Shown here in pieces: positions 23,164 to 41,488 of a DNA stretch of 64,000 nucleotides. How positions within the stretch are numbered: position 1 is the first letter of the stretch; each line of letters opens with the position of its first letter. The position numbers and the translations under genes are program-made. The notes under the pieces are model-generated. The model ran no database searches. It had not been told where the DNA came from and saw only the letters and a list, made by a program, of their open reading frames with translations. Source of the DNA: a virus; IMG/VR virus record IMGVR_UViG_3300042503_000838, positions 61,843 to 125,842 of that record, one strand, 5' to 3'.

Positions 23164-23190
23164 AACGTCAAGCTGGACGTTAAACGTAGC
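23164..23190 (+). ncRNA. leader H-type pseudoknot, copy 1 (divergent)
   Basis: AACGTC-AAGCTG-GACGTT-AAACG-TAGC; loop GCTG pairs with TAGC; 25 nt before ATG 23216. Confidence 0.6.
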
Positions 23191-23215
23191 ATTGACTCTT
23201 TACTAACTCAACAAC

Positions 23216-23404
23216 ATGACCTCATTCAAGAACTGGGCCACATCCGTCTGTGTTGCAGCAATCATCATCGGCATCGGCACGCAAGTAATGATGCACCAAC
23301 TAGATCAAGCAACTGCACAGCAATGTGCTAATCACGACTGGCCCAAGCAAGCACACGACATCCACATGGATTGGTGTGCGGCTAACAATTATTCAACCAA
23401 CTGA
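23216..23404 (+). CDS. hypothetical early protein (N-terminal hydrophobic helix)
   Basis: 62-aa ORF with A/C-rich leader. Confidence 0.6.
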   Translation: MTSFKNWATSVCVAAIIIGIGTQVMMHQLDQATAQQCANHDWPKQAHDIHMDWCAANNYSTN

Positions 23405-23446
23405 GTACCAGGTGTGATGCCAGGGGATCGAATCCCCTACTCAGTA
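23400..23446 (+). ncRNA. tRNA-like minihelix (acceptor stem plus T-arm only)
   Basis: 7-bp ACTGAGT/ACTCAGT stacked on 5-bp AGGGG/CCCCT with 7-nt loop ATCGAAT; 15-nt linker in place of the D and anticodon arms. Confidence 0.6.
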
Positions 23447-23483
23447 TTGCCATCCACTGAAGGTGGCTATAACTCAACTCAAC

Positions 23484-23693
23484 ATGACTGCACTCAACCT
23501 ACGTAAGAACACTGCTCAGTTCCTATTGAGCACTGCTCAGTCTCTATTGAGCACAGCATCTTTTATTGAGCAAGCCAAGGTTCCCAACAAGGAAGATATT
23601 GGCGAAAAGCTGAACGAGTATAGAACTCGGGCTGCGGCACTTATGATGCCGAACGACATGGCATTCGTTATCACACCTAAGACTGAAGCCTGA
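23484..23693 (+). CDS. hypothetical early protein
   Basis: ATG after AACTCAACTCAAC leader. Confidence 0.55.
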   Translation: MTALNLRKNTAQFLLSTAQSLLSTASFIEQAKVPNKEDIGEKLNEYRTRAAALMMPNDMAFVITPKTEA

Positions 23694-23751
23694 CTCCTGC
23701 ACTAAGGGCCTATGGGCCTTTTCTGCAGGACTCAACATCCTGTCATCAAAC
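23691..23751 (+). repeat. intergenic structured repeat A, copy 1
   Basis: Near-identical to 24190..24249; nested hairpin with covariation. Confidence 0.85.
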
Positions 23752-23768
23752 CTACCGAGCTCAACTCA

Positions 23769-23990
23769 ATGCTCTGCTACTATCCACACGAAGGTGCCAC
23801 CGAACGCATCACTTGGCATGGTGGGGAATCAACCATGCTTCACTACCAGGTGCAAGTAGATGACTACAAGGGAGATCCTGATTGGATCGAGCGTGAATCT
23901 CAGACATTCATGGGAGGAATGCCTTGTGGCACCAAGGAACTACTAGCTGCAATGTCTGATTACTACCAAAGCATCGTTCAACCTTACTGA
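23769..23990 (+). CDS. hypothetical early protein
   Basis: ORF between repeat A copies. Confidence 0.55.
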   Translation: MLCYYPHEGATERITWHGGESTMLHYQVQVDDYKGDPDWIERESQTFMGGMPCGTKELLAAMSDYYQSIVQPY

Positions 23991-23991
23991 C

Positions 23992-24192
23992 ATGAACAAC
24001 AACTACTTCACAAACGCTGTGCTTGCCCTCGTTATGGGCGCAGGAGCAGGCATGCTGCTATCTGCTGGAGCACAGCAACTACTCAACAAGCACTACGTCA
24101 AGACATGCCCAGCAAAGCCAGGGCATCAACTCATATACATGCGTAGCTTTCTAGGCGATGCATACTATTGCTTAGATAAGCGCACACTCTGA
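23992..24192 (+). CDS. hypothetical early membrane protein
   Basis: N-terminal hydrophobic helix and Cys pair. Confidence 0.55.
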   Translation: MNNNYFTNAVLALVMGAGAGMLLSAGAQQLLNKHYVKTCPAKPGHQLIYMRSFLGDAYYCLDKRTL

Positions 24193-24249
24193 CTCTTGCA
24201 CTAAGGGGCTTCGGCCCTTTACTGCAGGACTCAATATCCTGCATCAAAC
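24190..24249 (+). repeat. intergenic structured repeat A, copy 2
   Basis: TGACTCTTGCACTAAGGGGCTTCGGCCCTTTACTGCAGGACTCAATATCCTGCATCAAAC. Confidence 0.85.
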
Positions 24250-24266
24250 TTGTAGCTCAACACCAC

Positions 24267-24464
24267 ATGAAACACACAGTTCGTTTGGAACCAGGGCGAT
24301 TTATCCACCTTGATTCTTACTATGCGTCTCATGAGACACGCCTTAGTAAGATCTGCGTGGTAGCCCTGACACTAACCATTGCCGCACTCACTGCAGGTGC
24401 AGTGATCGGCATGGATATCACAAACCCAACTCCTACTCAACACCATGACAACACTCAGCGCTAA
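24267..24464 (+). CDS. hypothetical early membrane protein
   Basis: 65 aa with one TM-like segment. Confidence 0.55.
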   Translation: MKHTVRLEPGRFIHLDSYYASHETRLSKICVVALTLTIAALTAGAVIGMDITNPTPTQHHDNTQR

Positions 24465-24783
24465 CATCAAACTTATCGAAGATCGCATCCAGGAACTCTG
24501 TGATGCACTACAAGATCACTTTTACAAACAGTACCAACGTGTCTGCACATATGAAATTGTGCGAGGCGTTAAGTACTACAAGATCATCCACGTCTGCAAC
24601 CCTGGCTGTGAACGTGAAGGCAGGTCAGTCCATGCATTTGTCGCAAGGCAAACAGGGACTGTATACAAGCCTGCCTCATGGAAAGCACCAGCGAAACATG
24701 CCAGGTACCAGCTACTAGATGACGGATCATTTGCTAGGTGCCTAGAAAAAGCAGACTGGGCTGGAGCGTACCTCTACCTGTAG
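24445..24783 (+). CDS. conserved phage hypothetical protein
   Basis: YYKII...RSVHAFV...G.VYKPASWKAPAK pattern recalled from other cyanophages. Confidence 0.65.
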   Translation: MTTLSANIKLIEDRIQELCDALQDHFYKQYQRVCTYEIVRGVKYYKIIHVCNPGCEREGRSVHAFVARQTGTVYKPASWKAPAKHARYQLLDDGSFARCLEKADWAGAYLYL

Positions 24784-24881
24784 TCACACCACAGGTAGCG
24801 TACCACCCTCGCATCACACTACATGCGTTGTTGCATAGCTAGCAACCAGCATGTAACCTAACTCAGCACCAACCCAACTCC

Positions 24882-25097
24882 ATGGAACTCCTCAATCAAT
24901 TTGATGTTGCTAACCCTGATCACGTCTCAGTGATTACCAGGGATGGCAAGGTTATTATCTCCATCCGCAAGGATGGGACAGATGTAACTATTGGTATTCC
25001 CCATGGGTCTAGCAACAACATCTTTAACACAACCCCCCGGCCCCCTCTACAACAGCCAGCACCACAGATAAAGGCTGTTAAGGAGGTAAGGCCTTAG
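24882..25097 (+). CDS. hypothetical early protein
   Basis: 71-aa ORF with A/C-rich leader. Confidence 0.55.
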   Translation: MELLNQFDVANPDHVSVITRDGKVIISIRKDGTDVTIGIPHGSSNNIFNTTPRPPLQQPAPQIKAVKEVRP

Positions 25098-25160
25098 TTG
25101 TTTTCTTGATAAACAACGGTTATTAGGATTCCAAGTAACTGAACTCACCCCAACACTCCA

Positions 25161-25535
25161 ATGAAATCACGCATCTCTGTCCTTAAAGAAGACCAGATCT
25201 GGGCACTGCGTTGCAAAGGATATCGCTACGACTTGATCGCTAGCATTGTCAACTGCAGCCCAGTATCTATGACACAGGTACTCCGACGGGTAAGGCAACG
25301 TCCTCCCGTCAAGGAAGACCCAATCAAACGTGGCCGTTACCGTGGCTTCCTAAGTGATGCCCAGGTAAATGACATTCGTAACCGTGCCAAGTACAAGGAA
25401 CCCATTGGGTTTATTGCCAGGGCTTACGACATGACACCAGAGGCCATCTATGCAATCGTCAGCTACAGGACCTATAAGGAACCCTGCAAAGATGATGTAT
25501 TTATCCCACGCTTTGCTAACAGACTCATGAGGTAG
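25161..25535 (+). CDS. putative helix-turn-helix protein (two HTH-like segments)
   Basis: LRCKGYRYDLIASIVNCSPVSM and LSDAQVNDIR...IARAYDMTPEAIYAIV. Confidence 0.6.
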   Translation: MKSRISVLKEDQIWALRCKGYRYDLIASIVNCSPVSMTQVLRRVRQRPPVKEDPIKRGRYRGFLSDAQVNDIRNRAKYKEPIGFIARAYDMTPEAIYAIVSYRTYKEPCKDDVFIPRFANRLMR

Positions 25536-25579
25536 TACATAAGTATTATCAATCACCCCACAATGGGGTGATCCTACTC

Positions 25580-25608
25580 ACGTCCTGAGTAAGACGTTAA
25601 ACTGCTCA
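25580..25608 (+). ncRNA. leader H-type pseudoknot, copy 2
   Basis: ACGTC-CTGAGTAA-GACGT-TAAAC-TGCTCA; TGAGTA pairs with TGCTCA. Confidence 0.8.
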
Positions 25609-25630
25609 CCGTTCCATCTCAACTCAGACC

Positions 25631-25774
25631 ATGATTGAACTTGATCAGAACTACAACGCTGACTTGCTTGATGCTATGGCAGACATTGCCTACGAGCAGG
25701 AGCAAGCCATGTTTGAATCCAATCAAGAAGAATGGATTCTAGTTGAACATCCACTTACTTACCAAGGTGACTAA
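25631..25774 (+). CDS. small acidic protein (47 aa)
   Basis: MIELDQNYNADLLDAMADIAYEQEQAMFE... read by eye downstream of pseudoknot 2. Confidence 0.6.
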   Translation: MIELDQNYNADLLDAMADIAYEQEQAMFESNQEEWILVEHPLTYQGD

Positions 25775-25776
25775 CC

Positions 25777-26235
25777 ATGGCCAAATCAATTCAACGCACT
25801 GAAGTGTGGGATGAAGACCCAATCATTCTCTTCATCACACTCATCTCAATCTCAATCACACTCATAGGAGATCTCATCTCATGTCTCTTCAACCTGAACA
25901 ACTGCTCATCGCAGACGCTTTCGGCTACGAACCCTGTGGTCCAGACGAAGCTTCAGAACAGTACCAAGCCTACGCAGACTTCCAAGACGCACCCAAAGGC
26001 GCCATCGCCTGCACTGGTAACGTCTACCGAAACAAGCGTGGAACCCTCCGTTGCTACTGGATCCCAACCGGTGGCAACTACTCAGCCCAGGACAAAGAAG
26101 ATCTCGAAGGATGGTACGACGTCCCAACCAACGAAGAGATCGAGGAGTACACATTCGACAGCTGCTGCCTCACTCCCTGTGGAGACGAAGTCGAACCCGA
26201 TCATTCCGACAGCTGGCTTAGGATTCTCGGCTTGA
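25777..26235 (+). CDS. putative membrane protein with Ser/Thr/Pro-rich tail, overlapping the next gene
   Basis: ATG 2 nt after the upstream stop; TM segment IILFITLISISITLIG; 355-nt overlap with 25881..26240. Confidence 0.45.
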   Translation: MAKSIQRTEVWDEDPIILFITLISISITLIGDLISCLFNLNNCSSQTLSATNPVVQTKLQNSTKPTQTSKTHPKAPSPALVTSTETSVEPSVATGSQPVATTQPRTKKISKDGTTSQPTKRSRSTHSTAAASLPVETKSNPIIPTAGLGFSA

Positions 26236-26240
26236 TCTAA
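25881..26240 (+). CDS. conserved acidic phage hypothetical protein
   Basis: C-terminal EEYTFDSCCLTPCGDEVEPDHSDSWLRILGLI. Confidence 0.65.
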   Translation: MSLQPEQLLIADAFGYEPCGPDEASEQYQAYADFQDAPKGAIACTGNVYRNKRGTLRCYWIPTGGNYSAQDKEDLEGWYDVPTNEEIEEYTFDSCCLTPCGDEVEPDHSDSWLRILGLI

Positions 26241-26306
26241 CCTACATCACATAACACTAGCGTTATGCTGACATGCGCTATTCGCGAATAGCGAACAGTA
26301 AGTACC

Positions 26307-26336
26307 AGGGTATTGCCAGATAACTACTGGCCTACC
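26307..26336 (+). repeat. 30-bp direct repeat B, copy 1 (hairpin)
   Basis: AGGGTATTGCCAGATAACTACTGGCCTACC identical to 26578..26607. Confidence 0.9.
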
Positions 26337-26362
26337 TATCTAAACTCAAAGCGATTAACACA

Positions 26363-26569
26363 ATGCCACAAAGAATTTTTGTTTTCAAAACCACTGAAGT
26401 TACTTCAGATGGCAGACCTTATCTTCTAGCTATACCAGAAGATAAGATAACTGAACTGCGTACAACTTATGGCAGCGATAACATCTATGCAATTGTTAAC
26501 GGCACGAAAGTCAATTGTTCCTTTGAGCGATTGATCAAAGAACTAGGTACGCCTCACAACTGTTTTTAA
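26363..26569 (+). CDS. hypothetical protein flanked by repeat B
   Basis: 68-aa, relatively AT-rich ORF. Confidence 0.55.
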   Translation: MPQRIFVFKTTEVTSDGRPYLLAIPEDKITELRTTYGSDNIYAIVNGTKVNCSFERLIKELGTPHNCF

Positions 26570-26577
26570 ACTCATCA

Positions 26578-26607
26578 AGGGTATTGCCAGATAACTACTG
26601 GCCTACC
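26578..26607 (+). repeat. 30-bp direct repeat B, copy 2
   Basis: Identical to 26307..26336. Confidence 0.9.
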
Positions 26608-26703
26608 CCCTGCACCCCTGCAAGAAGTACCAGAGGTGCACCCTTAATCTATTAGGGAATACCTCTGTACTACACACCATTCATTCACTTACCAACCCAA
26701 GAC

Positions 26704-26991
26704 ATGACACCTACCTACCGTCAACCCAAACTTAATGAGTACCACAAACTCACAGATATTCTTGAAGAACTACAAGCAATGTCTCAACGTGAGAGCAAGA
26801 GGCATGAAATAGATCAACACCTGACTCCATCCATGCTTGCTCTACTGGATAACGAGATCATTCCCATACTTGAGAATGAACTGGAATGGGAACCATCAGA
26901 TGCAGACCTTAGCTGTGATGGTGAACCGCCCCTGACTGCTGATGAAATGCACACTGCAGCATGGCGTCAGCACCAGGAACTGCATAGCTAA
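26704..26991 (+). CDS. hypothetical early protein
   Basis: 95-aa acidic ORF. Confidence 0.6.
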   Translation: MTPTYRQPKLNEYHKLTDILEELQAMSQRESKRHEIDQHLTPSMLALLDNEIIPILENELEWEPSDADLSCDGEPPLTADEMHTAAWRQHQELHS

Positions 26992-27096
26992 CAGCCCTAC
27001 CGCAACATTAAGGAATCATTAAGACCACTGGTCATGGCTTGCTGCCACCTGGTAGACTTGCCGTGACCACACTCAGATCTCACTTGACACCACACC

Positions 27097-27300
27097 ATGT
27101 CCGACAGCATTCGCATCCCAGACTCAATTGATCTTCAGCGTCTACAAGCTATGCAGCTTGTAGCCAAGATGAAAGAATCAGCTGATAAACATGGGGTTGG
27201 TTTCATTGGGGGCTTCATTGCCCCCAATGGAGAGAAATTCATCATGACAAATATGGATGATGAAGATACCCAAGCATTACTACCTGACAATTTGAAATGA
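27097..27300 (+). CDS. hypothetical early protein
   Basis: 67-aa ORF. Confidence 0.6.
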   Translation: MSDSIRIPDSIDLQRLQAMQLVAKMKESADKHGVGFIGGFIAPNGEKFIMTNMDDEDTQALLPDNLK

Positions 27301-27369
27301 CAACCATTGAATTCTTGATTCTATTTGGAATTCTTGTTTGCTTTTCCTTGTTACTTAACTATTTGATTT

Positions 27370-27666
27370 ATGGATAAACACAAAGCAATGATCGATGAGA
27401 TCATTGACAAATTCAACTTTGAACGAGTGCACATTGCTATGACAGCACTTGACTGGCAATGGGCAACCACAGCAGGTAATGGATATGCAATACCAACACT
27501 AACCAAACTCAAAGCAATGGCACGTACTTTGTTACGTGAATCCTTTAATGAAACACAAGTTAGCAGTGGTGGTTTTGTAGCCACTTACCATCCCAAGGAC
27601 GAACTTACCTCTGAGTATTTTGACTTGAAGTTTGTACTCCATCACGCAGATTCTTACGATGACTAA
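27370..27666 (+). CDS. conserved phage hypothetical protein
   Basis: IDEIIDKFNFERVHIAMTALDWQW pattern. Confidence 0.65.
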   Translation: MDKHKAMIDEIIDKFNFERVHIAMTALDWQWATTAGNGYAIPTLTKLKAMARTLLRESFNETQVSSGGFVATYHPKDELTSEYFDLKFVLHHADSYDD

Positions 27667-28009
27667 CCAACAACATCCCATTATTCCGCCACAAGATCTA
27701 CGCAACAAGTGGCTTGATGAGGCGCCAAGTACCAGTGTGTACGACTATCTCATTGACAGCGCAGCACAATGGGGTGCCGACACGGAGCTAGAAGCCTGTT
27801 GTGAGTGGCTTGTAGCACACCAATGGCTTTCGGCATCTGGCGCATGTCTTTTAAATCTTCGTACTGACCGTCGTCCCAGGCCTCTTAGCCTGAAGGAACA
27901 GGCGTTAGCAGTACTTGAAGAAGAACCTGAAGATGCTAAAGAACTTATTGTGTTTGACACAGATCAAGTTAATCTCATCCGCCGCGCACTCGAGGCGTTA
28001 CCTGAATGA
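27659..28009 (+). CDS. hypothetical protein, paralog of 32265..32597
   Basis: HPI.PP...AAQWG.D.ELEACCEW...IRRALEAL shared. Confidence 0.7.
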   Translation: MTNQQHPIIPPQDLRNKWLDEAPSTSVYDYLIDSAAQWGADTELEACCEWLVAHQWLSASGACLLNLRTDRRPRPLSLKEQALAVLEEEPEDAKELIVFDTDQVNLIRRALEALPE

Positions 28010-28203
28010 CTGACAAATCACCCATCAACTTTGATAAGACCATCGCTGGGTTTAACATAACCGAGCATGGTATTAAATCATTCACCAAATCAATTCAACT
28101 TGGTCCGTTCCAGATTACACTTAACGCTAGAGAATCTGGTGTACGTGGATCTATTTCATTGCCTGGCACAGGCTTGAGCAAACGAAACATACGTTTGCTC
28201 TGA
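28006..28203 (+). CDS. DUF4236-like small protein
   Basis: KSIQLGPFQITLNARESGVRGSISLPGTGLS resembles the DUF4236 pattern (SIPGTGLSY). Confidence 0.55.
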   Translation: MTDKSPINFDKTIAGFNITEHGIKSFTKSIQLGPFQITLNARESGVRGSISLPGTGLSKRNIRLL

Positions 28204-28206
28204 TCC

Positions 28207-28235
28207 AAGGACCTGGGATGTCCTTAAACTCATCC
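28207..28235 (+). ncRNA. leader H-type pseudoknot, copy 3
   Basis: AAGGAC-CTGGGAT-GTCCTT-AAACTC-ATCC; stem 1 fully covaried relative to the other copies. Confidence 0.75.
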
Positions 28236-28256
28236 AGTCCAACTCAACCTCATCTC

Positions 28257-28454
28257 ATGAACTCGACCGAACTCCACGCCATGATTGCCCGCATGGACAG
28301 CTATGGCGGCTCATTCGTATCCTCAATAGCACAAGCACTACGCTTTGCTGATCCAAAGAATCGGCAGCGTTTGCTTGATGCATTCCCTGATCTTGTCCAG
28401 AAGTATGGACCTCAAGGTCAGTTTGCCCAAGCCAAACAACTCACACAGGTGTAA
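28257..28454 (+). CDS. conserved phage hypothetical protein
   Basis: YGGSFVSSIAQALRFADPKNRQRLLDAFPD pattern. Confidence 0.65.
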   Translation: MNSTELHAMIARMDSYGGSFVSSIAQALRFADPKNRQRLLDAFPDLVQKYGPQGQFAQAKQLTQV

Positions 28455-28457
28455 CCC

Positions 28458-28706
28458 ATGCAAGTCCTAGCAATCGAAGACACATTCATTGACGGCAACG
28501 ATGTCACAGTTACAGCAGTGGTTGACGAAATGCGTCTCATTCGCAAGTCGACTTACCTCGACCCTGATGAGTACGCTCCTGCACTATGCAGAACAAGCTT
28601 CGAACTGGATGAGGGAGAACAAATCCCTCTTGACGAAGATGGCTTCTGCGATTATCTTGCTTTGCTCAACCCTGACTGGGAATTACTCCCAGTAGATAAC
28701 GACTGA
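28458..28706 (+). CDS. hypothetical acidic protein
   Basis: 82-aa ORF. Confidence 0.6.
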   Translation: MQVLAIEDTFIDGNDVTVTAVVDEMRLIRKSTYLDPDEYAPALCRTSFELDEGEQIPLDEDGFCDYLALLNPDWELLPVDND

Positions 28707-28713
28707 CATCACA

Positions 28714-28741
28714 CGTCCTGGACATGACGCTAAACTGTCCA
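28714..28741 (+). ncRNA. leader H-type pseudoknot, copy 4
   Basis: CGTC-CTGGACAT-GACG-CTAAAC-TGTCCA; TGGACA/TGTCCA. Confidence 0.8.
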
Positions 28742-28769
28742 CTCACTCCGAACCTACTCCGAACTTATC

Positions 28770-30512
28770 ATGCAGTTTCAATTACCCTCGAACCTTCAAA
28801 CAGAACTCCTGGCTTACGATCCCAAGCTCAAGCAGCTTCAACGTGAGCAGAATCCTATATCAACCAAAGCTAAAGCTAAGTTTCCACTTGGTGCAGTCTT
28901 TGATCTGATACCTGCTGATGTTGTTACACCTACAAAGCTTGAGCAAGTAATAACAGATCTCAATGCCAGGGGTGTAGCACATCGCCATACTCAGTTTACC
29001 AAGGTAACAGATATTGCTACACCAAGAGCACGCACTATTACCTATGCCATCATCTATCACTATGAGAAGGTGTGGTATGCAGCATGGCTACCACCCAAAG
29101 GACAAGAGAATGATTATGTATATGGCTATGCATATGCATACAAGAATCTTGATTCAGTACGCAAATCTATTCCAAGTTCGTTGCTTCAAAACAATAGTAC
29201 AACTCCAGTTGAATATGTTAAGTACGGACGCAGTGAGTTCTGTGTTGTACGCCAGAACTTAACCAAGGAAGATATTGCCAACGGCAATACAACTCATTGG
29301 TGGTGCCCTTGCTACGTATCATACGGCAAAGGCGGTAATATCAGGACAGCTATATCCGCATTTGAATCTGCACTTAGCCAAACCATTCCCAAGTGGGATG
29401 ACTCACGTAAATTCTTTGATCGTATTGTCACCAATAATTGGGCTACAATTCTTGGATTAAAACGTTGCAGTAAGTATTGGAATACTTTTGCAGATCCAGA
29501 GCAAGCTATGCGTGATGCAATTCCATCTGCAGATTTGTTTTACGGAATAGCTGATACATACAAGAAGGATAATAATGATTATCACAGCCAAGTATATTGC
29601 ATTGCTCATCGCGTACTGCATATAGTTGGTACACCATTCTTCCGCAAGTGGATTCAATCGCAATGCGATGAAGCCATTGCAATGTTTAATAACCCTGAGA
29701 ACAATCTATTCTGCAAGATAACTCAACCTTGGAATCGTATTGAAAAACTAGTGCAGGCTATTGATTACGTTAATAATATTTGGCCGGACTGCCCTGTTGA
29801 TTTCTATCAGAACCATATTGAATATCTAATTGGCACACGACTTGATCGTTACGTAGGTGAAAAGGCAAAGACTTGGTTGTGCACACATATGCAACCAGCT
29901 TCCTTCTTTCATATCCTCAAGAAAAACTACGAAGATCAGATCAATGATAAATCCAGTAGCTTGTCTTACTACACAAGCACTGAGATAGGCAAGCTTACAT
30001 TCTATTTAACTGAATGGAATGACTCACTATCAATGCTTGATGATGTGCTCAACAATGACATGACCATTGATCCGCCAAGGCGTTGGCGCCTGACTGAGTT
30101 CCATGATCATGTGCAAGCAGAAGCATGGAAGATCAAGCATCCAAACGCTAGCCTGCCCCAGGATCTATTCCCCTCACCTGTCAAGGTTGAAGTGGGTGAT
30201 GAACGCTGGTCATTCTTCCAGCCTCATGACACACATCAATTGTCAGCATGGGGCCAGGCCGTACGTAATTGCGTCGGCAATGCCAGTGAGTATGCCACTG
30301 GTGTACGCAAGAAGAAACATTTCATTGTGCTCTGTATGGTTGACGGCAAACCTCAGTTCACTGTCCAACTCAAAGTTGAGATGGGCATGATGAGCGTTAG
30401 CCAGATCGTTGGTACATCCAACCAGCGGTTGACGCAAGAGCAGAAGGATTCCTACACAGAAGCCTTTGGCAAAGCGTTGAAACTTCAAGCAGATGCGCTA
30501 GAGTCTGTCTAG
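28770..30512 (+). CDS. PcfJ-like domain protein
   Basis: C-terminal EFHDH...LSAWGQAVRNCVG..YA....K.HFIV pattern typical of PcfJ-like phage proteins. Confidence 0.65.
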   Translation: MQFQLPSNLQTELLAYDPKLKQLQREQNPISTKAKAKFPLGAVFDLIPADVVTPTKLEQVITDLNARGVAHRHTQFTKVTDIATPRARTITYAIIYHYEKVWYAAWLPPKGQENDYVYGYAYAYKNLDSVRKSIPSSLLQNNSTTPVEYVKYGRSEFCVVRQNLTKEDIANGNTTHWWCPCYVSYGKGGNIRTAISAFESALSQTIPKWDDSRKFFDRIVTNNWATILGLKRCSKYWNTFADPEQAMRDAIPSADLFYGIADTYKKDNNDYHSQVYCIAHRVLHIVGTPFFRKWIQSQCDEAIAMFNNPENNLFCKITQPWNRIEKLVQAIDYVNNIWPDCPVDFYQNHIEYLIGTRLDRYVGEKAKTWLCTHMQPASFFHILKKNYEDQINDKSSSLSYYTSTEIGKLTFYLTEWNDSLSMLDDVLNNDMTIDPPRRWRLTEFHDHVQAEAWKIKHPNASLPQDLFPSPVKVEVGDERWSFFQPHDTHQLSAWGQAVRNCVGNASEYATGVRKKKHFIVLCMVDGKPQFTVQLKVEMGMMSVSQIVGTSNQRLTQEQKDSYTEAFGKALKLQADALESV

Positions 30513-30563: not shown

Positions 30564-30788
30564 ATGACTGAGTACACCGACGACCAACTCCTAGCACAAG
30601 CACTCGCCAACATTGGTGAATACATACATACTCATGGCACACCTGATTATGTATTGATTGATGAGCAGGATCCTCGCAATGAGGATGACTACGACACATG
30701 GAGCTATGGCACTGAGCCATTGCCACATGATCACACTTGGCAGCACACATCAATTGATGTGAGTGTAAGTCCAAGTGAGCCCGAGTAG
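30564..30788 (+). CDS. hypothetical acidic protein
   Basis: 74-aa ORF; its 3' end overlaps the tRNA 5' end. Confidence 0.55.
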   Translation: MTEYTDDQLLAQALANIGEYIHTHGTPDYVLIDEQDPRNEDDYDTWSYGTEPLPHDHTWQHTSIDVSVSPSEPE

Positions 30789-30855
30789 CCCAGCGGTAGT
30801 AGGCAAGCGACTTAAAATCGCTACAGCGTGAGTTCGAATCTCACCTCGGGTACCA
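30779..30855 (+). tRNA. trnL: tRNA-Leu(UAA) with encoded CCA and short variable loop
   Basis: GCCCGAG/CTCGGGT acceptor, AGCGA-CTTAAAA-TCGCT anticodon arm, GTGAG-TTCGAAT-CTCAC T-arm, A73, CCA. Confidence 0.9.
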
Positions 30856-34259: not shown

Positions 34260-34287
34260 GGTCCTGGAATGACCTTAAACTTATCCA
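34260..34287 (+). ncRNA. leader H-type pseudoknot, copy 5
   Basis: GGTC-CTGGAAT-GACC-TTAAAC-TTA-TCCA; TGGA/TCCA. Confidence 0.65.
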
Positions 34288-34328: not shown

Positions 34329-35117
34329 ATGCAACTCCTCAAATTTTCCAACGGCAACGGCAAGCTCAAGAACCGTCTGATCTTCTCGCTGCCTGCTGGT
34401 CACTCATGCCCACACGCTGGTGTGTGCAAGACATTTGCTGACCGGGTCACCGGACTCATTACTGATCTGCCCCAGTACACGGGCACAGAAGCAGATGAGT
34501 TCCGTTGCTTTGCTGCCATGGCAGAGGTACGGCCTACCGTTCGTGCGGCACGCTGGCACAACTGGGATCTTATCCGCGAGACTATGCATCGCAATGGGAA
34601 CCAGGCTGTGTTGCTGCGTGACCTGATCGACTTGTCACTCAGTATGCAAGCACCAAAGGAACTGGTGCGGGTCCATGAGTCGGGTGACTTCTGGACTGAG
34701 AATTACATGCGGGCTTGGCTGATGGTTGCTGCCCAGCGGCCCAAGCAAAAGTTCTATGCATACACCAAGTCCCTTGGTATGTGGTACAACTTGCGTGATC
34801 AGATCCCGTCCAACTTTTATCTCACCGCATCTTGCGGTGGGACACTCGATTACTTGATTCCCAAGTATCCGGATGTGTTCCAGCGGGTGGCATACGTTGT
34901 GTACACAGAAGAGGAAGCGGCTGCACGCGGACTTGCTGTGGATCATGACGACAGCCACTGCTTAGGTGACAAACCGTTTGCACTACTGGTACATGGGAGC
35001 CAGCGTGCTGGATCTGAAGCAATGCAAGCTGTTACACAACGCAAGAAGACTGGGGGCTTTGTCGGGTATGGTAAAACATTCCAAAAAGAATCTGTAGAAC
35101 CTTGCGTTGCTAAATAG
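34329..35117 (+). CDS. GP88-like protein
   Basis: NGKL...FSLPAGHSCP...C...CFA...VRVHESGDF pattern of phage gene-product-88 family. Confidence 0.7.
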   Translation: MQLLKFSNGNGKLKNRLIFSLPAGHSCPHAGVCKTFADRVTGLITDLPQYTGTEADEFRCFAAMAEVRPTVRAARWHNWDLIRETMHRNGNQAVLLRDLIDLSLSMQAPKELVRVHESGDFWTENYMRAWLMVAAQRPKQKFYAYTKSLGMWYNLRDQIPSNFYLTASCGGTLDYLIPKYPDVFQRVAYVVYTEEEAAARGLAVDHDDSHCLGDKPFALLVHGSQRAGSEAMQAVTQRKKTGGFVGYGKTFQKESVEPCVAK

Positions 35118-35152: not shown

Positions 35153-35386
35153 ATGTCTTACATGCTTGCTTGCTGGAGGTGGAATGAACCTTACGGCGTC
35201 ACTGCCTCCAGTTCTTCTAATAAATTTGAACTGATTCCGCTAGACTCAGACTCTGCATTATCCAAGGTCTTCAGTCATCCGTACCGCTCGGGTGCACAGA
35301 AAATCTTGAGCTGGATCAAAGAGAATGACGACAGCATCAACGGTGAAGAACTCTCAATTCAAGATGTTGCCAGGTTCCAAAGATGA
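35153..35386 (+). CDS. hypothetical protein
   Basis: 77-aa ORF; start codon buried in an 11-bp hairpin. Confidence 0.55.
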   Translation: MSYMLACWRWNEPYGVTASSSSNKFELIPLDSDSALSKVFSHPYRSGAQKILSWIKENDDSINGEELSIQDVARFQR

Positions 35387-37190
35387 ACATTGGCTAATAA
35401 TCGATTTGGAGTCCAATGGTCTCTACGATAATGTGACGGTAATCCATTGCATTGTCATTCATGACATTGGACTCCAACAAACTTTTAGTTATGGGCCTGA
35501 TCGCATTGCTGATGCTCTTGCTCATCTGGCAACCGCTGATGTTTTGATTGGCCACAACATTTTGTTTTATGACATTCCAGTCCTAAACAAACTGTATCCA
35601 TCTGTACAACTCAACGGAAGAATCATTGACACACTCATCTGCACCAGGCTCATCTGGCCCAAGGAAATCCTCTACACCCTTGACGATGAACAATATACGC
35701 AGGTTCCGAAGGGACTCAAGGGGTCTGCATCCCTCAAGGCATGGGGATGGAGGTTGGCCGATCACAAGATCAACTTCAAAGACTTCAGTGAATACAGTGA
35801 AGAAATGTTGGCATACTGTCAGCAGGACGTTGCTGTTACTAAGAAGCTTTGGCAGCACATCACAAAAGAAAACTACCCGCAGCCTGCGCTCAAGCTTGAG
35901 CATGATCTTGCCCTGGCAATTGAAAAACAAATTAGAGCAGGCATTCCTTTTGATGTGGATGCATGTCTTGATTTGGTGGATAGTCTCAGAGCAAAAGAAG
36001 CAGAGCTTGAGGCACACCTAAAGGAGATCTTTCCACCTACCAAGATTGAATCAATCTTTGTTCCAAAGGTAAACAACTCGAAACGTGGTTATGTCAAAGG
36101 ACAACCGTTCACTAAAGTTACGTATCAGGAGTTTAATCCTGGGTCTCGCGATCAGATTGTACAACGCCTCACAAAAAAATATGGATGGCAGCCCGAAGCC
36201 ACCACTGAAAAAGGTAATCCAATTCTTAATGATGATGTACTTGATGCTTTGCCGTACCCAGAAGCAAAACCACTAGCTGAATATATGTTAGTCAAGAAAC
36301 GTCTTGGTCAAATTGCTGATGGTAACAATGCTTGGTTAAAGCTTGTTAATAATGATGATGGCCGTATGCACGGTGATCTCATTACCAATGGATGTATTAC
36401 GGGCCGAGCGAGTCATCGTAATCCCAATATGGCCCAAGTGCCAGCAGGTTATTCACCTTACGGTCATGAATGTCGTTCGTTGTTCCATGCTCCTGATGGT
36501 TGGGATCTTATTGGGATCGATGCTAAAGCTTTGGAGCTTAGGTGTCTTGCTGGGTATCTAGCCATCTGGGATGATGGTGAATACTCAGCAATGGTTACAA
36601 ACCCTGAGGTTGACATTCACGTGTACAACCAAAAGATGTTTGGTGTTGAAACCAGAGACATTGCCAAGCGTTTGCTGTATGGGGTTTTGTATGGTGCTGG
36701 TGCACTTAAGGCTGGTACAATTATTGATCCGAATGAAAAAGATGAAGTAGTTCTTAGAAAACTAGGAGCTACTGCAATTAACTCATTCATGGATGGGGTG
36801 CCTGCACTCCGGAAACTCAAACAACTTATTGATGAAACCATTGGCTTACGCGGTTATCTTATCGGCCTTGATCGTCGGACGTTACATTGTCGTTCCGCTT
36901 TTAAAGGATTGAATGTTTTGTTGCAAGCAAGTGGTGCAGCAATCATGAAGCAAGTTGTTGTCACCACGCACAACAACATTGAACAGAACCTTGGCTTGGT
37001 TCACGGCAAGGATTGGGAGCAACTCCTGTTTGTTCACGATGAGATTCAAGTGGCATGTGCTCCACAGCACACTGAGCTGATCAAAGAGCAAGCATTGGCT
37101 GCGTTCCCGCAAGCGCAACAATTCTTTGGATTCCGCTGTCCTATAGAAGGTGATGCTAAGGTGGGCTGCACCTGGGCAATGACACACTGA
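35325..37190 (+). CDS. polA: DNA polymerase family A with 3'-5' exonuclease (T7 gp5-like, Tyr762 type)
   Basis: Exo I DLE, Exo II GHN..FYD, Exo III YCQQD; motif A DAKALELR, motif B RDIAKRLLYGVLYG, motif C VHDE. Confidence 0.93.
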   Translation: MTTASTVKNSQFKMLPGSKDEHWLIIDLESNGLYDNVTVIHCIVIHDIGLQQTFSYGPDRIADALAHLATADVLIGHNILFYDIPVLNKLYPSVQLNGRIIDTLICTRLIWPKEILYTLDDEQYTQVPKGLKGSASLKAWGWRLADHKINFKDFSEYSEEMLAYCQQDVAVTKKLWQHITKENYPQPALKLEHDLALAIEKQIRAGIPFDVDACLDLVDSLRAKEAELEAHLKEIFPPTKIESIFVPKVNNSKRGYVKGQPFTKVTYQEFNPGSRDQIVQRLTKKYGWQPEATTEKGNPILNDDVLDALPYPEAKPLAEYMLVKKRLGQIADGNNAWLKLVNNDDGRMHGDLITNGCITGRASHRNPNMAQVPAGYSPYGHECRSLFHAPDGWDLIGIDAKALELRCLAGYLAIWDDGEYSAMVTNPEVDIHVYNQKMFGVETRDIAKRLLYGVLYGAGALKAGTIIDPNEKDEVVLRKLGATAINSFMDGVPALRKLKQLIDETIGLRGYLIGLDRRTLHCRSAFKGLNVLLQASGAAIMKQVVVTTHNNIEQNLGLVHGKDWEQLLFVHDEIQVACAPQHTELIKEQALAAFPQAQQFFGFRCPIEGDAKVGCTWAMTH

Positions 37191-37195
37191 GTGGT

Positions 37196-37600
37196 ATGGA
37201 CAACAAGCACAGAACAGGAGCGGTAAGCGAGCTAATTGCTCAGACATGGTTTCTTAAAAATGATTACGAAGTATTTGTTCCTGTTGTTCAACAAAATTTA
37301 TATGATTTAGTTGTATACAAAAACAATCAATTTCAAAGTGTACAAGTAAAAACAGCATATCAAATGTGGTCTGGAAAATTAAGTTATTATCTTGTTCGTT
37401 TGGGTAGGACTAGATATCAAAACAGTGGAAAAGTAATAAAAGAATACAAAGAAACAGAAAAATTTGACCTGCTTTTTGTTGTTAGAGAAAATAGCAAATG
37501 GTTGATTCCTTGGAATGAGATACCAAAAAAGAAAACAATTTATTTTAATGGTAAAAATAGAATCGCTGGTTACAACTCAGACGATTGGTTGGTAGATTAG
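37196..37600 (+). CDS. PD-(D/E)XK endonuclease (free-standing, homing-type)
   Basis: GAVSELIA...YDLV...VQVKT...FDLLFVV; markedly AT-rich. Confidence 0.8.
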   Translation: MDNKHRTGAVSELIAQTWFLKNDYEVFVPVVQQNLYDLVVYKNNQFQSVQVKTAYQMWSGKLSYYLVRLGRTRYQNSGKVIKEYKETEKFDLLFVVRENSKWLIPWNEIPKKKTIYFNGKNRIAGYNSDDWLVD

Positions 37601-37606
37601 TTTACT

Positions 37607-37632
37607 CGTCCTTGGCATGACGTTAAACTGCC
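37607..37632 (+). ncRNA. leader H-type pseudoknot, copy 6
   Basis: CGTC-CTTGGCAT-GACG-TTAAAC-TGCC. Confidence 0.75.
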
Positions 37633-37655
37633 TTAACAACTAACTTCTCGAACAC

Positions 37656-38465
37656 ATGAACTTTGTTTCTGTTTGCGCTCAGACCACTGAAGTACCACGT
37701 GAGGTATTCATCAGCGCAAGTTCTACAGCCATGCGTTGCATGGTAATGCTGCCTCCCGTAGGCAAGAAAGCTCCAACGCCAATCGAACTCAATGTGTACG
37801 GTAAGAATGCCGAGCGTTTTTCCCGAGTACCCAAGGGTGCACAGATCTACATTCACGGCGCCAAGCTACGTTTCGAACTTGAGTCCAGAACGTTTTCGTT
37901 ACATGGAGGAATTATTGCTCCGGCTAACGATCAGTTCCCGATCTTCAACACAGTTATCCTCAGCGGTCGCTGCGTCAAAGACATTGATCAAGAAGATGCA
38001 CGAGCCTTCAAGACAACTGCCGATGGTTTGATGATCTGCAACCAAACTCTTTCTGTTAATACAGGAAGGAATCAGGCAGATCTGTTTAACTTCTTTGCCA
38101 TGAACTCGGCAGAAGATAAGTTAAACAATGCAGAACTACTGGTTAACTTCACACGTAAAGGAACTGGTCTTACGATCCAGGGTCGTTTGATCACTGATGC
38201 GTGGAAGGATGCCAACACGGGTGAGAAGCGGTCTAACACCAAGATCCAGCTGGTGTCCATGACCCTGGCACCTAAGGGTCAAGGGGAAGTGAAGCCAATT
38301 GCACCGCAGACAACCGTTGCCTCCAGCGAGAATGTCACTAGTCTGTGGGGTGGCCGTACCGCTGAAGAAGGCTCTGACCCCTGGACGCAAAGCTCTGGTG
38401 GTGGGCTGCCTGATCTCCCCGGTCAGTACGGCTCCGCACCTGACCTTGAAGAAGTTCCCTTTTGA
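37656..38465 (+). CDS. ssb: single-stranded DNA-binding protein with probable tandem OB folds
   Basis: C-half NTVILSGR...KGTGLTIQGRL....WKD..TGEKRS; acidic tail ending DLEEVPF. Confidence 0.8.
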   Translation: MNFVSVCAQTTEVPREVFISASSTAMRCMVMLPPVGKKAPTPIELNVYGKNAERFSRVPKGAQIYIHGAKLRFELESRTFSLHGGIIAPANDQFPIFNTVILSGRCVKDIDQEDARAFKTTADGLMICNQTLSVNTGRNQADLFNFFAMNSAEDKLNNAELLVNFTRKGTGLTIQGRLITDAWKDANTGEKRSNTKIQLVSMTLAPKGQGEVKPIAPQTTVASSENVTSLWGGRTAEEGSDPWTQSSGGGLPDLPGQYGSAPDLEEVPF

Positions 38466-38710
38466 TTATCATGACTAAATCAGATCAACGCATGAAGTTT
38501 ACCCTTGAGGAAGAAGAGTACACCGTCGTATTCCAAAGCGCCGGTGTTACTACTGATGAAATCCTTGAGCACTTCATCATGTTTATGAAGGGCTGTGGGT
38601 ACAAAGAAGACAGTGTTTACGCTGCGCTCCAGGAATCCCTAGATGAACGTGAAGCTTTGTCAAAGGCAGCTGCGCTTTATGACAAGGATGCCTGCAAGGA
38701 CCTAGTGTAG
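38462..38710 (+). CDS. hypothetical protein
   Basis: EILEHFIMFMKGCGY pattern. Confidence 0.6.
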   Translation: MIIMTKSDQRMKFTLEEEEYTVVFQSAGVTTDEILEHFIMFMKGCGYKEDSVYAALQESLDEREALSKAAALYDKDACKDLV

Positions 38711-38715
38711 GTCAC

Positions 38716-38742
38716 CGCCTCGGGATGGCGTTAAAAACGTCC
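38716..38742 (+). ncRNA. leader H-type pseudoknot, copy 7
   Basis: CGCC-TCGGGAT-GGCG-TTAAAAAC-GTCC; stem 1 covaried. Confidence 0.75.
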
Positions 38743-38764
38743 ACGTCCAAACCCTGAACAAACC

Positions 38765-39784
38765 ATGATTGCCTCCATGACTACTAAGAAAACTTCTGCG
38801 CTTGCAACACGTGGACTCGATTCTTTCAAACTTTTTCAATCCAAAGAATTTGTTTCGGGGTACCAGAACCTCGTCACTATCCAGCCCCTCAACAAGTCCA
38901 AGACACGAGGTTGGTTCGTGCGGAACTCAGACCTGGACACTTGCGGCTGGAGTGCCACTGAAGATCAGTTTGCTAAAGGTTCAGTTATCTGGAACTACAA
39001 GCAAACTTTTGGTATGGCTCCCAACACTTCAGTGGAAGAAGGGCTCAATTTTGTTGAGCCTCGAATTCAAATCCTTCTTCGTTCTCCCCTCATGGTTGAG
39101 GAAACCACGGGGATGAGGCAGACGATTGGTACCTTTGACAACCCTGATGTCAAGGAACTGTGGGAAGCTGACAAGATTGCTGCTGACCTGGAAGGTAGCA
39201 AAGGCAATCTCTACAAGCGTAAGTACAGCGTACGCACCAAGTACCTGGTTTACATCCTGACCCAGGACAACAAACGTGCCCATAAGATCCCGATGGTGCT
39301 GACCCTGAAGGGATTGAATGGCACTGATGTTTCCGAAAAAGTCAAGCTGTATGAAAAGGAAATGTCCAAGTGCCTGAGCAAGGCACTGGATGCTGAAGTA
39401 CCCCTGAGCTTCAATGAAAAGTTCTATGCAACTACCGTATTTACTCCGGTACTTGCCAACGAAATGCGCGGAGCCAACAACGTTGAGATCTGTGCAATTG
39501 AATCTTTTGACATTCCTGGTTACAGCACCCAAGAAGAAGCAGTCGAATCATTGAATCGCCTGTCGATTCCTGATGAAGATCGTGAATCTACTTGGAAGTA
39601 CCAAGAGTTGTTCAATGATTACATCAACATCCATGCCAAGCAGGATGCACAGAAGCTTGGTGGTGCCTACGGCATCAAGGATGGTGTCGAGATTCTTCCT
39701 GTGTCTCGTACCATGGATACGGTAGAGGTAAAGGCCCTGCCTGCTCGTGATGAAACCACTGGTGAAGACATTAGTCTTGCCTGA
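38765..39784 (+). CDS. DUF5895-like protein
   Basis: GWFV...GW...PRIQILLRSPL...TKYLVYIL..DN...HKIPMVLTLKG recalled from cyanobacterial/cyanophage DUF5895 proteins. Confidence 0.55.
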   Translation: MIASMTTKKTSALATRGLDSFKLFQSKEFVSGYQNLVTIQPLNKSKTRGWFVRNSDLDTCGWSATEDQFAKGSVIWNYKQTFGMAPNTSVEEGLNFVEPRIQILLRSPLMVEETTGMRQTIGTFDNPDVKELWEADKIAADLEGSKGNLYKRKYSVRTKYLVYILTQDNKRAHKIPMVLTLKGLNGTDVSEKVKLYEKEMSKCLSKALDAEVPLSFNEKFYATTVFTPVLANEMRGANNVEICAIESFDIPGYSTQEEAVESLNRLSIPDEDRESTWKYQELFNDYINIHAKQDAQKLGGAYGIKDGVEILPVSRTMDTVEVKALPARDETTGEDISLA

Positions 39785-40004
39785 TGGAATCAGTGGTGTC
39801 CTTGATCTTGCTTGAGTAATTCTCCTGCATTAAATCAAGGGCATCATTAACTAAACCTTTGATAGCTATCTGCCGTGTTGTTGCAATCTTTGTTAACAGC
39901 ACGGCAATTTCTTTTAACTCACTAAGTGATGTACATTCATTTATTGTTCTGAACATCTTCTCTTGCCAAAACAAATCCTCTGCAGATGATTCGAATTTCA
40001 ACAT
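39771..40004 (-). CDS. candidate NblA-like phycobilisome degradation protein
   Basis: S.E..F...I..S..ELKE..V.L......RQ..I..LV matches the two-helix NblA pattern by eye. Confidence 0.5.
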   Translation of the reverse strand: MLKFESSAEDLFWQEKMFRTINECTSLSELKEIAVLLTKIATTRQIAIKGLVNDALDLMQENYSSKIKDTTDSIRQD

Positions 40005-40085
40005 GAGATTAAATTGTTTAAGTTCATTCTACTTGTTGCATTTAAGCTGATTTGAAACCAATGGATTGTATTAAGGATTACCGCC

Positions 40086-40283
40086 ATGAAGCCTGAGCAC
40101 AAAGCTGTTCTAAAAGTTGGAGGTTCCTTTGGCCTACTTGGTGCGGGTGTCCTTGCTCTTGTGGGCACTCCTGTGGCATGGGCTGCGCTTGCTTACGGAA
40201 CGTACCGTGTATCGCGGGCGGCGTACCAGGATGCCAAGGACCGTGCTACCATCCAGGAAGACGACAGCTCCTGGCACGTCTGA
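40086..40283 (+). CDS. small membrane protein
   Basis: Hydrophobic GLLGAGVLALVGTPVAWAALAYG. Confidence 0.6.
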   Translation: MKPEHKAVLKVGGSFGLLGAGVLALVGTPVAWAALAYGTYRVSRAAYQDAKDRATIQEDDSSWHV

Positions 40284-40307
40284 TCAAACTCAACTCAAAC
40301 TCAACTC

Positions 40308-41255
40308 ATGTCCAACCAAACTCAGCAGGAACTCAACGCGGCGCAGGCTGCGATCTACACACGCACCAACATCGGGCGTGCGTACCAAGGTTTTGATGAC
40401 ACCGAAATCGCTGGTATTTATCTGCGAGGTGATCATTGTATTGTGGTGCGTCGCGATGGTAGTGAGCAGGCTTATGACCGGCAGCTGATCAAGGCTGCCT
40501 TCCAGCAGTATACGCATCGCCTTAAAGATTTCTTTGCTTATCTTGGCCCCAACTACAGGGGGCCAAGTGTCTGGCACAACAATGCTTATGTCATGTTCAA
40601 AGGTTGGAACTATACTCATGCACTTGGACACCTGACATCCAATGCAAAACTTCAACAGCACTGGGCCGACAAATTTATACACCTATCAGACCCTGCCAAA
40701 GTCGTTGCCCTCCTCCAGAATGAGCAGACGGATCTGGGACATTTGGTTGCGCCGGATGGGCTTCGGAGCCCGAATCGGCCAATTGACTTGGAGTCTGAGC
40801 TGGAGGAAAACGCCTCAGGTATTCAGGCCAGCACTCCTGAACCTTACTGCTCATGTGGGTCCTTTCAGCGTCAGCTTCTTAATGTTTCGTTATTCCAACA
40901 GGAAGTTGAAGGATTCAAACCCTGGTGCATCCACCTGACTTGGTTCCATAAATACCGTGAGCTTCTGTGCAAGCGCACTGAAGTGCGTAATGCACTGCCC
41001 AGTGGTACACCGGATAAGTGCGTGGCGTGGTGGTATGCACCGCCTCAGGATCACACCAGTGCTGGTAAGTTTGTACTGCTACATACTAAGTCTGGTGCTC
41101 AGGCTCCCTTGACCCATTGGCGTACCTACAAACCAAGGGAGGTATTCAACCAGGAACATGCCTGGGATCTGTTCTTCAATATGATGGAGGCTGGTTACGT
41201 ACCGTTCCCTGGCATTGCACTACCTCAACTGCAATCTGCAATTAAAAAGAAATGA
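40308..41255 (+). CDS. SWIM-type zinc-finger protein
   Basis: YCSCGSF...PWCIHL (CxC...CxH). Confidence 0.65.
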   Translation: MSNQTQQELNAAQAAIYTRTNIGRAYQGFDDTEIAGIYLRGDHCIVVRRDGSEQAYDRQLIKAAFQQYTHRLKDFFAYLGPNYRGPSVWHNNAYVMFKGWNYTHALGHLTSNAKLQQHWADKFIHLSDPAKVVALLQNEQTDLGHLVAPDGLRSPNRPIDLESELEENASGIQASTPEPYCSCGSFQRQLLNVSLFQQEVEGFKPWCIHLTWFHKYRELLCKRTEVRNALPSGTPDKCVAWWYAPPQDHTSAGKFVLLHTKSGAQAPLTHWRTYKPREVFNQEHAWDLFFNMMEAGYVPFPGIALPQLQSAIKKK

Positions 41256-41443
41256 GCTTTCTTGCTTGGGTTGAAAAACTTCATGTAAAAGTTATTGATG
41301 AGGAGGATGGTGGTTGCATCATCCGCATTGATTGGGATGATGCCGATCCAGATCTTGAATACTGGACAAACCTTGGTGAAGAAGGACAAAAATCCTTTAT
41401 CATTCAAGCATTAATCAACGCACTTGATTGCTATATCGATTAA
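41252..41443 (+). CDS. hypothetical protein
   Basis: 63-aa acidic ORF. Confidence 0.55.
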   Translation: MSFLAWVEKLHVKVIDEEDGGCIIRIDWDDADPDLEYWTNLGEEGQKSFIIQALINALDCYID

Positions 41444-41460
41444 TACTTAGGGGAATCAAT

Positions 41461-41488
41461 CGTCCTGGTCATGACGTAAAACTGACCA
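41461..41488 (+). ncRNA. leader H-type pseudoknot, copy 8
   Basis: CGTC-CTGGTCAT-GACG-TAAAAC-TGACCA; TGGTCA/TGACCA. Confidence 0.8.

Follow-up and report, generated by a model that had tools for sequence, protein, structure and literature searches.

The 64,000-nt window analysed here is the right half of a 125,842-bp virus record from IMG/VR (IMGVR_UViG_3300042503_000838), the nearest named relative of which is the Synechococcus phage S-EIV1 (72% nucleotide identity over 34.2-42 kb of the window). Its plus-strand early and replication block (23-41.5 kb) contains eight copies of a 28-31-base RNA pseudoknot, called the knot in what follows, all located on the coding strand and each preceding an ATG. 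Both helices of the knot covary, and its core is nearly identical in sequence to that of coremin (xrRNA-C), an exoribonuclease-resistant RNA (xrRNA) of eukaryotic RNA viruses. Judged from sequence, the phage fold is best explained as a Watson-Crick variant of coremin devoid of the second hairpin, and it may act as a roadblock to mRNA decay in front of the genes that it precedes.

A pseudoknot with two covarying helices

The common form of the knot reads (N)CGUC, C, a 6-nt strand such as UGGnCA, U, GACG(N), UUAAAC and the complement of the loop strand, followed by a G-poor leader and the ATG. Folded as an H-type pseudoknot, it places one base (C) across the deep groove of a 6-7-bp stem 2 and one base at the stem junction, and its 6-nt A-rich linker runs along stem 1 (4-6 bp, usually CGUC/GACG). 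A covariance model comprising stem 1 and the sequence, with stem 2 left out, reports exactly eight copies in the window when filters are off (37.4-19.6 bits, the next match scoring 12.8 bits), and the same eight with no further ones in the whole record:

Copy 1, 23165..23192, plus strand: stem 1 ACGUC/GACGU, loop AAGCUG, UAAAC, stem 2 of 3-4 bp; 19.6 bits
Copy 2, 25580..25608, plus strand: stem 1 ACGUC/GACGU, stem 2 UGAGUA/UGCUCA with one G-U pair; 37.4 bits
Copy 3, 28207..28236, plus strand: stem 1 AAGGAC/GUCCUU, 7-nt loop CUGGGAU with AUCCAG, bulged G; 30.3 bits
Copy 4, 28714..28741, plus strand: stem 1 CGUC/GACG, stem 2 UGGACA/UGUCCA, linker CUAAAC; 35.2 bits
Copy 5, 34260..34286, plus strand: stem 1 GGUC/GACC, loop CUGGAAU with (U)AUCCA, 42-nt leader; 27.1 bits
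Copy 6, 37607..37634, plus strand: stem 1 CGUC/GACG, stem 2 GGCA/UGCC, 6 nt past the upstream TAG; 36.7 bits
Copy 7, 38716..38742, plus strand: stem 1 CGCC/GGCG, loop UCGGGAU, linker UUAAAAAC, stem 2 GGAU/GUCC; 26.4 bits
Copy 8, 41461..41488, plus strand: stem 1 CGUC/GACG, stem 2 UGGUCA/UGACCA, linker UAAAAC; 31.6 bits

Copy 1 (23164) is the weakest of the eight and has A instead of C as its loop 1; it may be degenerate.

To extend the family, 20 loci of S-EIV1-like phages were collected via the single-stranded DNA-binding protein (SSB), and the model was run on 16 of them together with the window and the S-EIV1 locus (~18 phages). It returns 83 hits, all on the coding strand; S-EIV1, a cultured phage of Synechococcus sp. 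PCCC-A2c, contributes at least 7 copies from the 37-kb part of its genome that was covered (locus L005). In the alignment of the 75 distinct copies, two-sided changes are found in all six stem-2 pairs and in two stem-1 pairs, and 80% of the cells are paired versus 18-44% after sliding of the partner strand; covariation as high as that observed arises in none of 500 shuffles. The orthologous SSB leader pairs GGCA with UGCC in the window, AAGCA with UGCUU in S-EIV1, and AGGUA with UGCCU in other relatives. A model-based alignment of 55 distinct bacterial copies, described below, is 88% paired, with none of 500 shuffles as high. Within stem 2, G-U pairs occupy one position in 18 of the 75 phage copies and another in 12, and their frequency, together with the strict strand polarity, points to RNA rather than duplex DNA. 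The assignment of the element as an H-type pseudoknot with two covarying helices, acting as RNA, is therefore well supported. A first-pass annotation, made from the letters alone, had placed eight such pseudoknots at these positions with these stems, had reported covariation in both helices, and had argued from compensatory changes for selection on RNA rather than on a DNA site; the enlarged alignment bears it out on each of these points.

Foldability as such carries little of this argument: a generic pseudoknot scan anchored on AAAC reports 31 hits in the genome, mostly 4+4-bp chance matches, so that the evidence lies in the conserved family and its covariation. No Rfam family corresponds to the knot. 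A scan of the window at gathering thresholds finds a tRNA alone, and searches at E-values up to 10 (22-42 kb; a 76-nt slice) return no match at any copy.

Relation to coremin and distribution

A full-text literature search with the invariant decamer of the knot led to the plant-virus coremin, an element of eukaryotic RNA viruses, beny- and cucumoviruses among them (Dilweg et al. 2019 PMC6546385; 2023 PMC10520033). Coremin comprises a stem of C1 G2 U3 C4 with G9 A10 C11 G12, a loop C5 G6 A7 A8, and a spacer U13 U14 A15 A16 A17 C18 U19 A20 C21 that leads to a second hairpin, the sequence of which is free. Xrn1 stalls on coremin one base ahead of hairpin 1, and coremin also blocks scanning ribosomes of different sources and stimulates -1 frameshifting. 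No crystal structure of it exists. The phage consensus is identical to coremin at C1-C5, at the penultimate loop A, at G9-G12 and at U13-U19, and the two share a loop ending in A and then U/A, tandem copies, and an intergenic or untranslated-region (UTR) location. The changes tolerated in the phage family also match coremin mutagenesis, in which hairpin 1 has 3-5 bp, its pyrimidine-purine (C-G) closing pair is kept and the outermost pair may vary: C-G closes the loop in 68 of 75 copies, U-G in 4 and G-C in none (C-G in 55 of 55 in the bacterial set), and the outermost stem-1 pair is CG in 56, UA in 6, GC in 4 and AU in 2. Both families also include the linker variants U14A and U13C.

The differences concern the loop, the end of the spacer and the setting. 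The phage loop counts 7-9 nt, compared with 4-6 nt in coremin. Of the coremin spacer (UUAAACUAC), in which A16-A20 are essential, the phage element keeps U13-U19 unchanged, but A20 and C21 are replaced by a G and a variable base that belong to the 6-7-bp Watson-Crick stem 2. Coremin lies in 3' UTRs, whereas the phage element is found in double-stranded DNA phages and bacteria, upstream of genes. A closer match in topology is xrRNA-WCC, a Watson-Crick variant of coremin obtained by selection and also found naturally, in which loop bases 6-8 pair with spacer bases 20-18 (Dilweg et al. 2023, PMC10321173). Both are canonical antiparallel pseudoknots with a single essential loop-1 base and the same register (7 with 19 and 6 with 20). 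These pairs, A-U (7 with 19) and C-G or U-G (6 with 20), are the two most conserved of the phage stem 2, and four further ones covary. However, xrRNA-WCC has only three pairs, 8 with 18 being one of them, and remains dependent on hairpin 2 for Xrn1 resistance, whereas the phage stem 2 runs on past the two shared pairs for four or five more by means of its enlarged loop, which makes it 3-4 pairs longer than that of xrRNA-WCC, leaves C18 unpaired, and has no 8-18 pair. With 6-7 bp, it approximates the combined length of the two or three loop-spacer pairs of coremin and a minimal hairpin 2, and on this comparison the longer stem 2 may substitute for hairpin 2. A search for the canonical tetraloop coremin in DNA phages gave 49 IMG/VR matches, nearly all in short RNA-virus-like contigs that carry hairpin 2, and the two in large contigs look like chance; the form found in DNA phages is thus a distinct variant.

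The first-pass annotation did not name coremin, the closest known relative of the knot, and pointed instead to the preQ1-I and SAM-II riboswitches. That resemblance is loose and does not hold up: Rfam returns no match, and the 17-42 nt that separate the knot from the AUG offer no Shine-Dalgarno (SD) sequence to sequester. As to the xrRNAs of flaviviruses and dianthoviruses, the proposed common feature is a folded RNA that mechanically obstructs 5'->3' exonucleases without the help of a protein; they differ in being ring-like folds of 45-70 nt, with a three-way junction or a stem-loop plus pseudoknot, and have no sequence similarity to the knot.

The knot is widespread. A pattern that fixed stem 1, the linker and the initial two bases of stem 2, and nothing else, matches at least 116 IMG/VR stretches, and 118 of 139 matches have at least 5 contiguous stem-2 pairs, for a chance expectation of ~1 (0.375^5). 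Many of these contigs are not S-EIV1-like, as the AGGAGG in their leaders shows. A stricter pattern, scanned over one genome per prokaryotic species, matches 111 stretches, with at least 5 stem-2 pairs in 74 of 120 matches and 4 pairs or a bulged stem in most of the others. The main carriers are Bacillota, Saccharibacteria/Patescibacteria, Paludibacteraceae, Desulfobacterota, Chloroflexi, alphaproteobacterial metagenome-assembled genomes (MAGs) and two Phytoplasma, with single hits in a Synechococcus MAG and in Haloarcula; the few beta- and gammaproteobacterial matches have no stem 2 and look like chance. Among 203 diverse copies, ~90% are intergenic and the next start lies mostly 10-30 nt downstream; capsid scaffold proteins account for 17 of 68 downstream proteins, and a terminator directly follows some copies. 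When the leader of an Enterococcus prophage was compared by BLAST with named phages, the only matches were to Latilactobacillus scaffold-gene regions, and they start past the knot, so that the comparison pointed to no well-studied model phage. The spread over unrelated phages and bacteria favours a function intrinsic to the RNA and makes a binding site for a phage protein less likely. The first-pass annotation had offered such a site as one option for a phage-wide cis-regulon; the element is not confined to this phage, being present in many unrelated phages and bacterial assemblies.

Several arrangements stand out among the diverse copies. In some contigs a second, more degenerate knot lies within a few bases of the first (L157, ~1375-1434; L207, ~2567-2640; L038; L130). 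On a Firmicutes CAG:95 contig (L217, minus strand; 2089-2180, 3071-3162, ~5086-5122 and ~5640-5670), four knots abut hammerhead-like sequences (CUGUC...CUGAUGA...GAAACAG), and Rfam recognises two of these sequences as type III hammerheads; the knot is immediately 5' of the hammerhead and would be left as the 3' terminus of the upstream fragment after cleavage. Paludibacteraceae and Bacteroidales MAGs (L154, L170, L201, L202, L208, L223, L230 and L251) contain many copies of a variant with the loop CCCUCUCCAU, then a second hairpin, GUUG...CAAC, and an A-rich GUAAAAAAGC tail.

A possible roadblock to decay and its alternatives

Our favoured reading, held tentatively and at just under an even chance, is that the knot is a protein-independent roadblock to 5'-end-dependent decay that would stabilise the downstream cistron. 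Each copy would be transcribed within a polycistronic early or middle mRNA and would fold as a compact H-type pseudoknot. Decay would begin upstream, through an endonucleolytic cut or removal of the 5' pyrophosphate, and the 5'-end-dependent enzyme, RNase J as a 5'->3' exonuclease in the cyanobacterial host, would be halted at the knot. RNase E scanning from a 5' monophosphate might be obstructed too, which is a possible extension of the roadblock idea. The downstream cistron (SSB, DUF5895, GP88, PcfJ-like or small proteins) would survive with the knot as its 5' cap, and the 17-28-nt G-poor unstructured leader would be left free for SD-independent 30S binding. Transcription through the element, its tertiary fold, nuclease stalling and stabilisation are the steps that we infer.

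What favours the roadblock is the near-identity of the knot to a tested xrRNA, its conservation across hosts that share no phage proteins, its placement at the 5' edge of high-demand genes (scaffold, SSB), and the ability of an xrRNA fold to stop a bacterial enzyme, since a flaviviral xrRNA halts bacterial RNase J1 in vitro by general mechanical obstruction (PMC5760640). Cyanobacteria are reported to have RNase J (PMC12464536). The Pfam search recognises no phage RNA polymerase, RNase or RNA-binding regulator in the window, where most open reading frames (ORFs) match no family at all; the lack of a recognisable polymerase or RNA-binding regulator counts in favour of the roadblock. The terminator right after some copies is as expected for stable 3' fragments, and the tandem knots have counterparts in coremin and in flavivirus xrRNAs.

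Several observations weigh against this reading. Coremin requires hairpin 2 to resist Xrn1, but no such hairpin follows the window copies, where the sequence is G-poor and essentially unfolded, so that the longer stem 2 would have to stand in for it; small frameshifter pseudoknots of similar size do not stall Xrn1. The phage loop departs from the YGAD/YGNNAD rule of coremin in its second base, U or C, although its first base (C, a Y), penultimate A and last base (U/A, a D) agree with it. Among five carrier genomes tested, RNase J is present in three (Saccharibacteria, Phytoplasma and alphaproteobacterial) and absent from a Zixibacteria genome and from a Paludibacteraceae genome with many copies, which excludes a strict association with RNase J and implies that this enzyme is not the sole target. 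The pure 5'-cap model does not explain the Firmicutes knots at the 3' end of hammerhead products, and the fairly constant distance between knot and AUG would suit a role in translation. The first-pass annotation had listed an RNase J-blocking cap among its options: the coremin core and the block of RNase J1 by an xrRNA speak for it, and the Paludibacteraceae carrier does not fit.

A wider claim is possible, if on balance doubtful: the knot would be the first natural xrRNA of the prokaryotic world, a minimal fold of ~28 nt that halts RNase J and enzymes like it unaided by protein and is shared by sequence among bacteriophages, bacterial mobile elements and eukaryotic RNA viruses, and its covarying stem 2 would reveal the long-sought pseudoknot topology of coremin, whose stem 2 plus hairpin 2 it would replace. 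To our knowledge, exoribonuclease-resistant RNAs have so far been known only from eukaryotic RNA viruses, and the literature searched describes no xrRNA, coremin-like or otherwise, from a phage or bacterium. If true, bacteria would possess a general, portable mRNA stabiliser, present in hundreds of phage and prophage contigs ahead of genes in high demand such as those for SSB and scaffold proteins, with possible use as a tool for synthetic operons. The phage family also gives coremin research the natural covariation that it was missing and fixes the register of the loop-spacer pairing. It raises an evolutionary question: the fold either arose independently in DNA phages and in the RNA viruses of plants and fungi, or has moved between them.

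The strongest alternative to the roadblock, although an unlikely one, is a translational operator or standby element. The knot would dock on the 30S platform or on ribosomal protein S1, or would nucleate a protein such as the phage SSB, and would set how often the adjoining unstructured leader serves initiation. The spacing is in its favour: in the window stem 2 ends 19-28 nt before the ATG, with 42 nt at copy 5 (34260), much as the first-pass annotation had given it for seven copies with the eighth farther away, and in most of 78 copies the knot ends 17-28 nt from the AUG. The spacers between knot and ATG contain 7% G versus 23% in the region, and fold at a mean minimum free energy of -1.3 kcal/mol versus -5.2 kcal/mol for random 35-mers. 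The SSB gene is among the targets, and the block to scanning ribosomes and the frameshifting described for coremin would likewise be in line with a translational function. There are two precedents. The T4/T2 gene 32 operator is a small coaxial H-type pseudoknot at the 5' edge of an unstructured SSB-gene leader (PMC3014915), and in tisB mRNA a 5' pseudoknot stands beside a single-stranded stretch used as a standby site by the 30S subunit and S1 (PMC7708055). The gene 32 operator, to which the SSB copy is similar in architecture, is unrelated in sequence, has a single target and is bound by gp32, whereas the knot has eight targets (seven besides SSB), its core also occurs in unrelated phages, and the SSB of the window is an OB-fold protein of PF00436, not a relative of gp32. 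The tisB pseudoknot (S1 9, S2 5) acts ~100 nt from a sequestered ribosome-binding site and has no sequence similarity to the knot. The translational alternative is further weakened by the hosts: the same core is kept in phages of very different hosts, among them Bacillota, Phytoplasma and Saccharibacteria, in which S1-dependent initiation is generally weak or absent, and many copies there are separated from any gene by further structures, by a hammerhead or by a terminator. Nor is an RNA-binding regulator recognisable in the window.

We give still less credence to an inter-cistronic boundary element, which would stop ribosomes from sliding or reinitiating past the upstream stop or, in other variants, would protect the 3' end of the upstream cistron, mark it for processing, or insulate RNA folding. 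In 42 of 73 S-EIV1-like copies, stem 1 begins 0-9 nt past the stop codon of the upstream ORF, so that most knots lie between two cistrons of a polycistronic RNA. At this distance, a ribosome with the stop codon in its A site would be in contact with the knot downstream of it. The Firmicutes knots at the 3' end of hammerhead products and the block that coremin opposes to ribosomes of different sources would also suit a boundary. However, for copies 1, 2 and 5 the upstream stop is 41-49 nt away and a separate hairpin intervenes, and the conserved relation is to the downstream start. A frameshift or readthrough pseudoknot fits the post-stop spacing in the same 42 of 73 copies, but the copies are intergenic, and at copy 6 the extended frame stays open for just 11 codons and does not coincide with that of SSB, which leaves readthrough or fusion unsupported. 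Lastly, a DNA-level site, be it a promoter with TAAACT as its -10 box, an operator or a folded single-stranded-DNA signal, is highly improbable: the strong sequence conservation, the strict polarity and the fit of TAAACT to TAnnnT would allow for it, but the interleaved inverted repeats vary yet stay complementary, as duplex-DNA sites do not, the stem-2 G-U pairs work only in RNA and only on the strand shown, there is no -35 box at constant spacing, and the core coincides with an RNA element known from RNA viruses.

Target genes and genomic context

The genes downstream of the knots are the following:

Copy 1 target, 23216..23404, plus strand: 62-aa ORF
Copy 2 target, 25631..25774, plus strand: 47-aa ORF
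Copy 3 target, 28258..28454, plus strand: 65-aa ORF
Copy 4 target, 28770..30512, plus strand: PcfJ-like protein, 580 aa (Pfam PF14284, E-value 2.7e-07)
Copy 5 target, 34329..35117, plus strand: GP88-family protein, 262 aa (Pfam PF17338, E-value 2.5e-42)
Copy 6 target, 37656..38465, plus strand: SSB (Pfam PF00436, E-value 3.3e-10; OB fold at residues 97-202)
Copy 7 target, 38765..39784, plus strand: DUF5895 protein, 339 aa (Pfam PF19247, E-value 2.9e-12)
Copy 8 target, 41508..41627, plus strand: 39-aa hydrophobic protein; an MFE... homologue occupies this position in relatives

The Pfam matches agree with the SSB, DUF5895-like, PcfJ-like and GP88-like identities proposed at first pass, and the knot-bearing ortholog groups are the same in the S-EIV1-like relatives as in the window. 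The SSB possesses a ~96-residue N-terminal extension, unassigned to any family, ahead of its OB fold. In four relatives (L019, ~10030-10073; L018, ~14200-14242; L008, ~8310-8354; L020, ~5800-5839), the knot of the MFE... gene is preceded by a conserved TTGACA-N7-TAGACT word, the spacing of which is unlike that of a sigma-70 promoter and which is missing at copy 8 of the window.

The first-pass annotation had also described a G-poor leader without an SD sequence as part of the arrangement. Such leaders are indeed found at the knots, but they are not specific to them: an SD-like word occurs in only 9 of the 67 ORFs of the region, and initiation in this phage seems as a rule to be independent of an SD sequence. 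Many knot-less plus-strand genes between 22000 and 48000 likewise follow leaders rich in A/C and poor in G that contain CAACUCAAC-like words (e.g. 40283-40307, 24240-24266 and 24850-24881).

The record, with 125.8 kb, is larger than S-EIV1 (79 kb) and the related contigs (48-85 kb), and all eight knots are confined to one 18-kb block of it. ARAGORN reports an odd tRNA with a 2-base 'anticodon' at 48822-48893 (minus strand), without Rfam support, and a tRNA-Leu(UAA) is located within the early block at 30779-30855. In the same block, a ~30-nt repeat (GGGTATTGCCAGATAACTACTGGCCTACC, with a CCAG...CTGG hairpin) at 26316-26350 and 26575-26606 flanks a 68-aa ORF (26363-26569).

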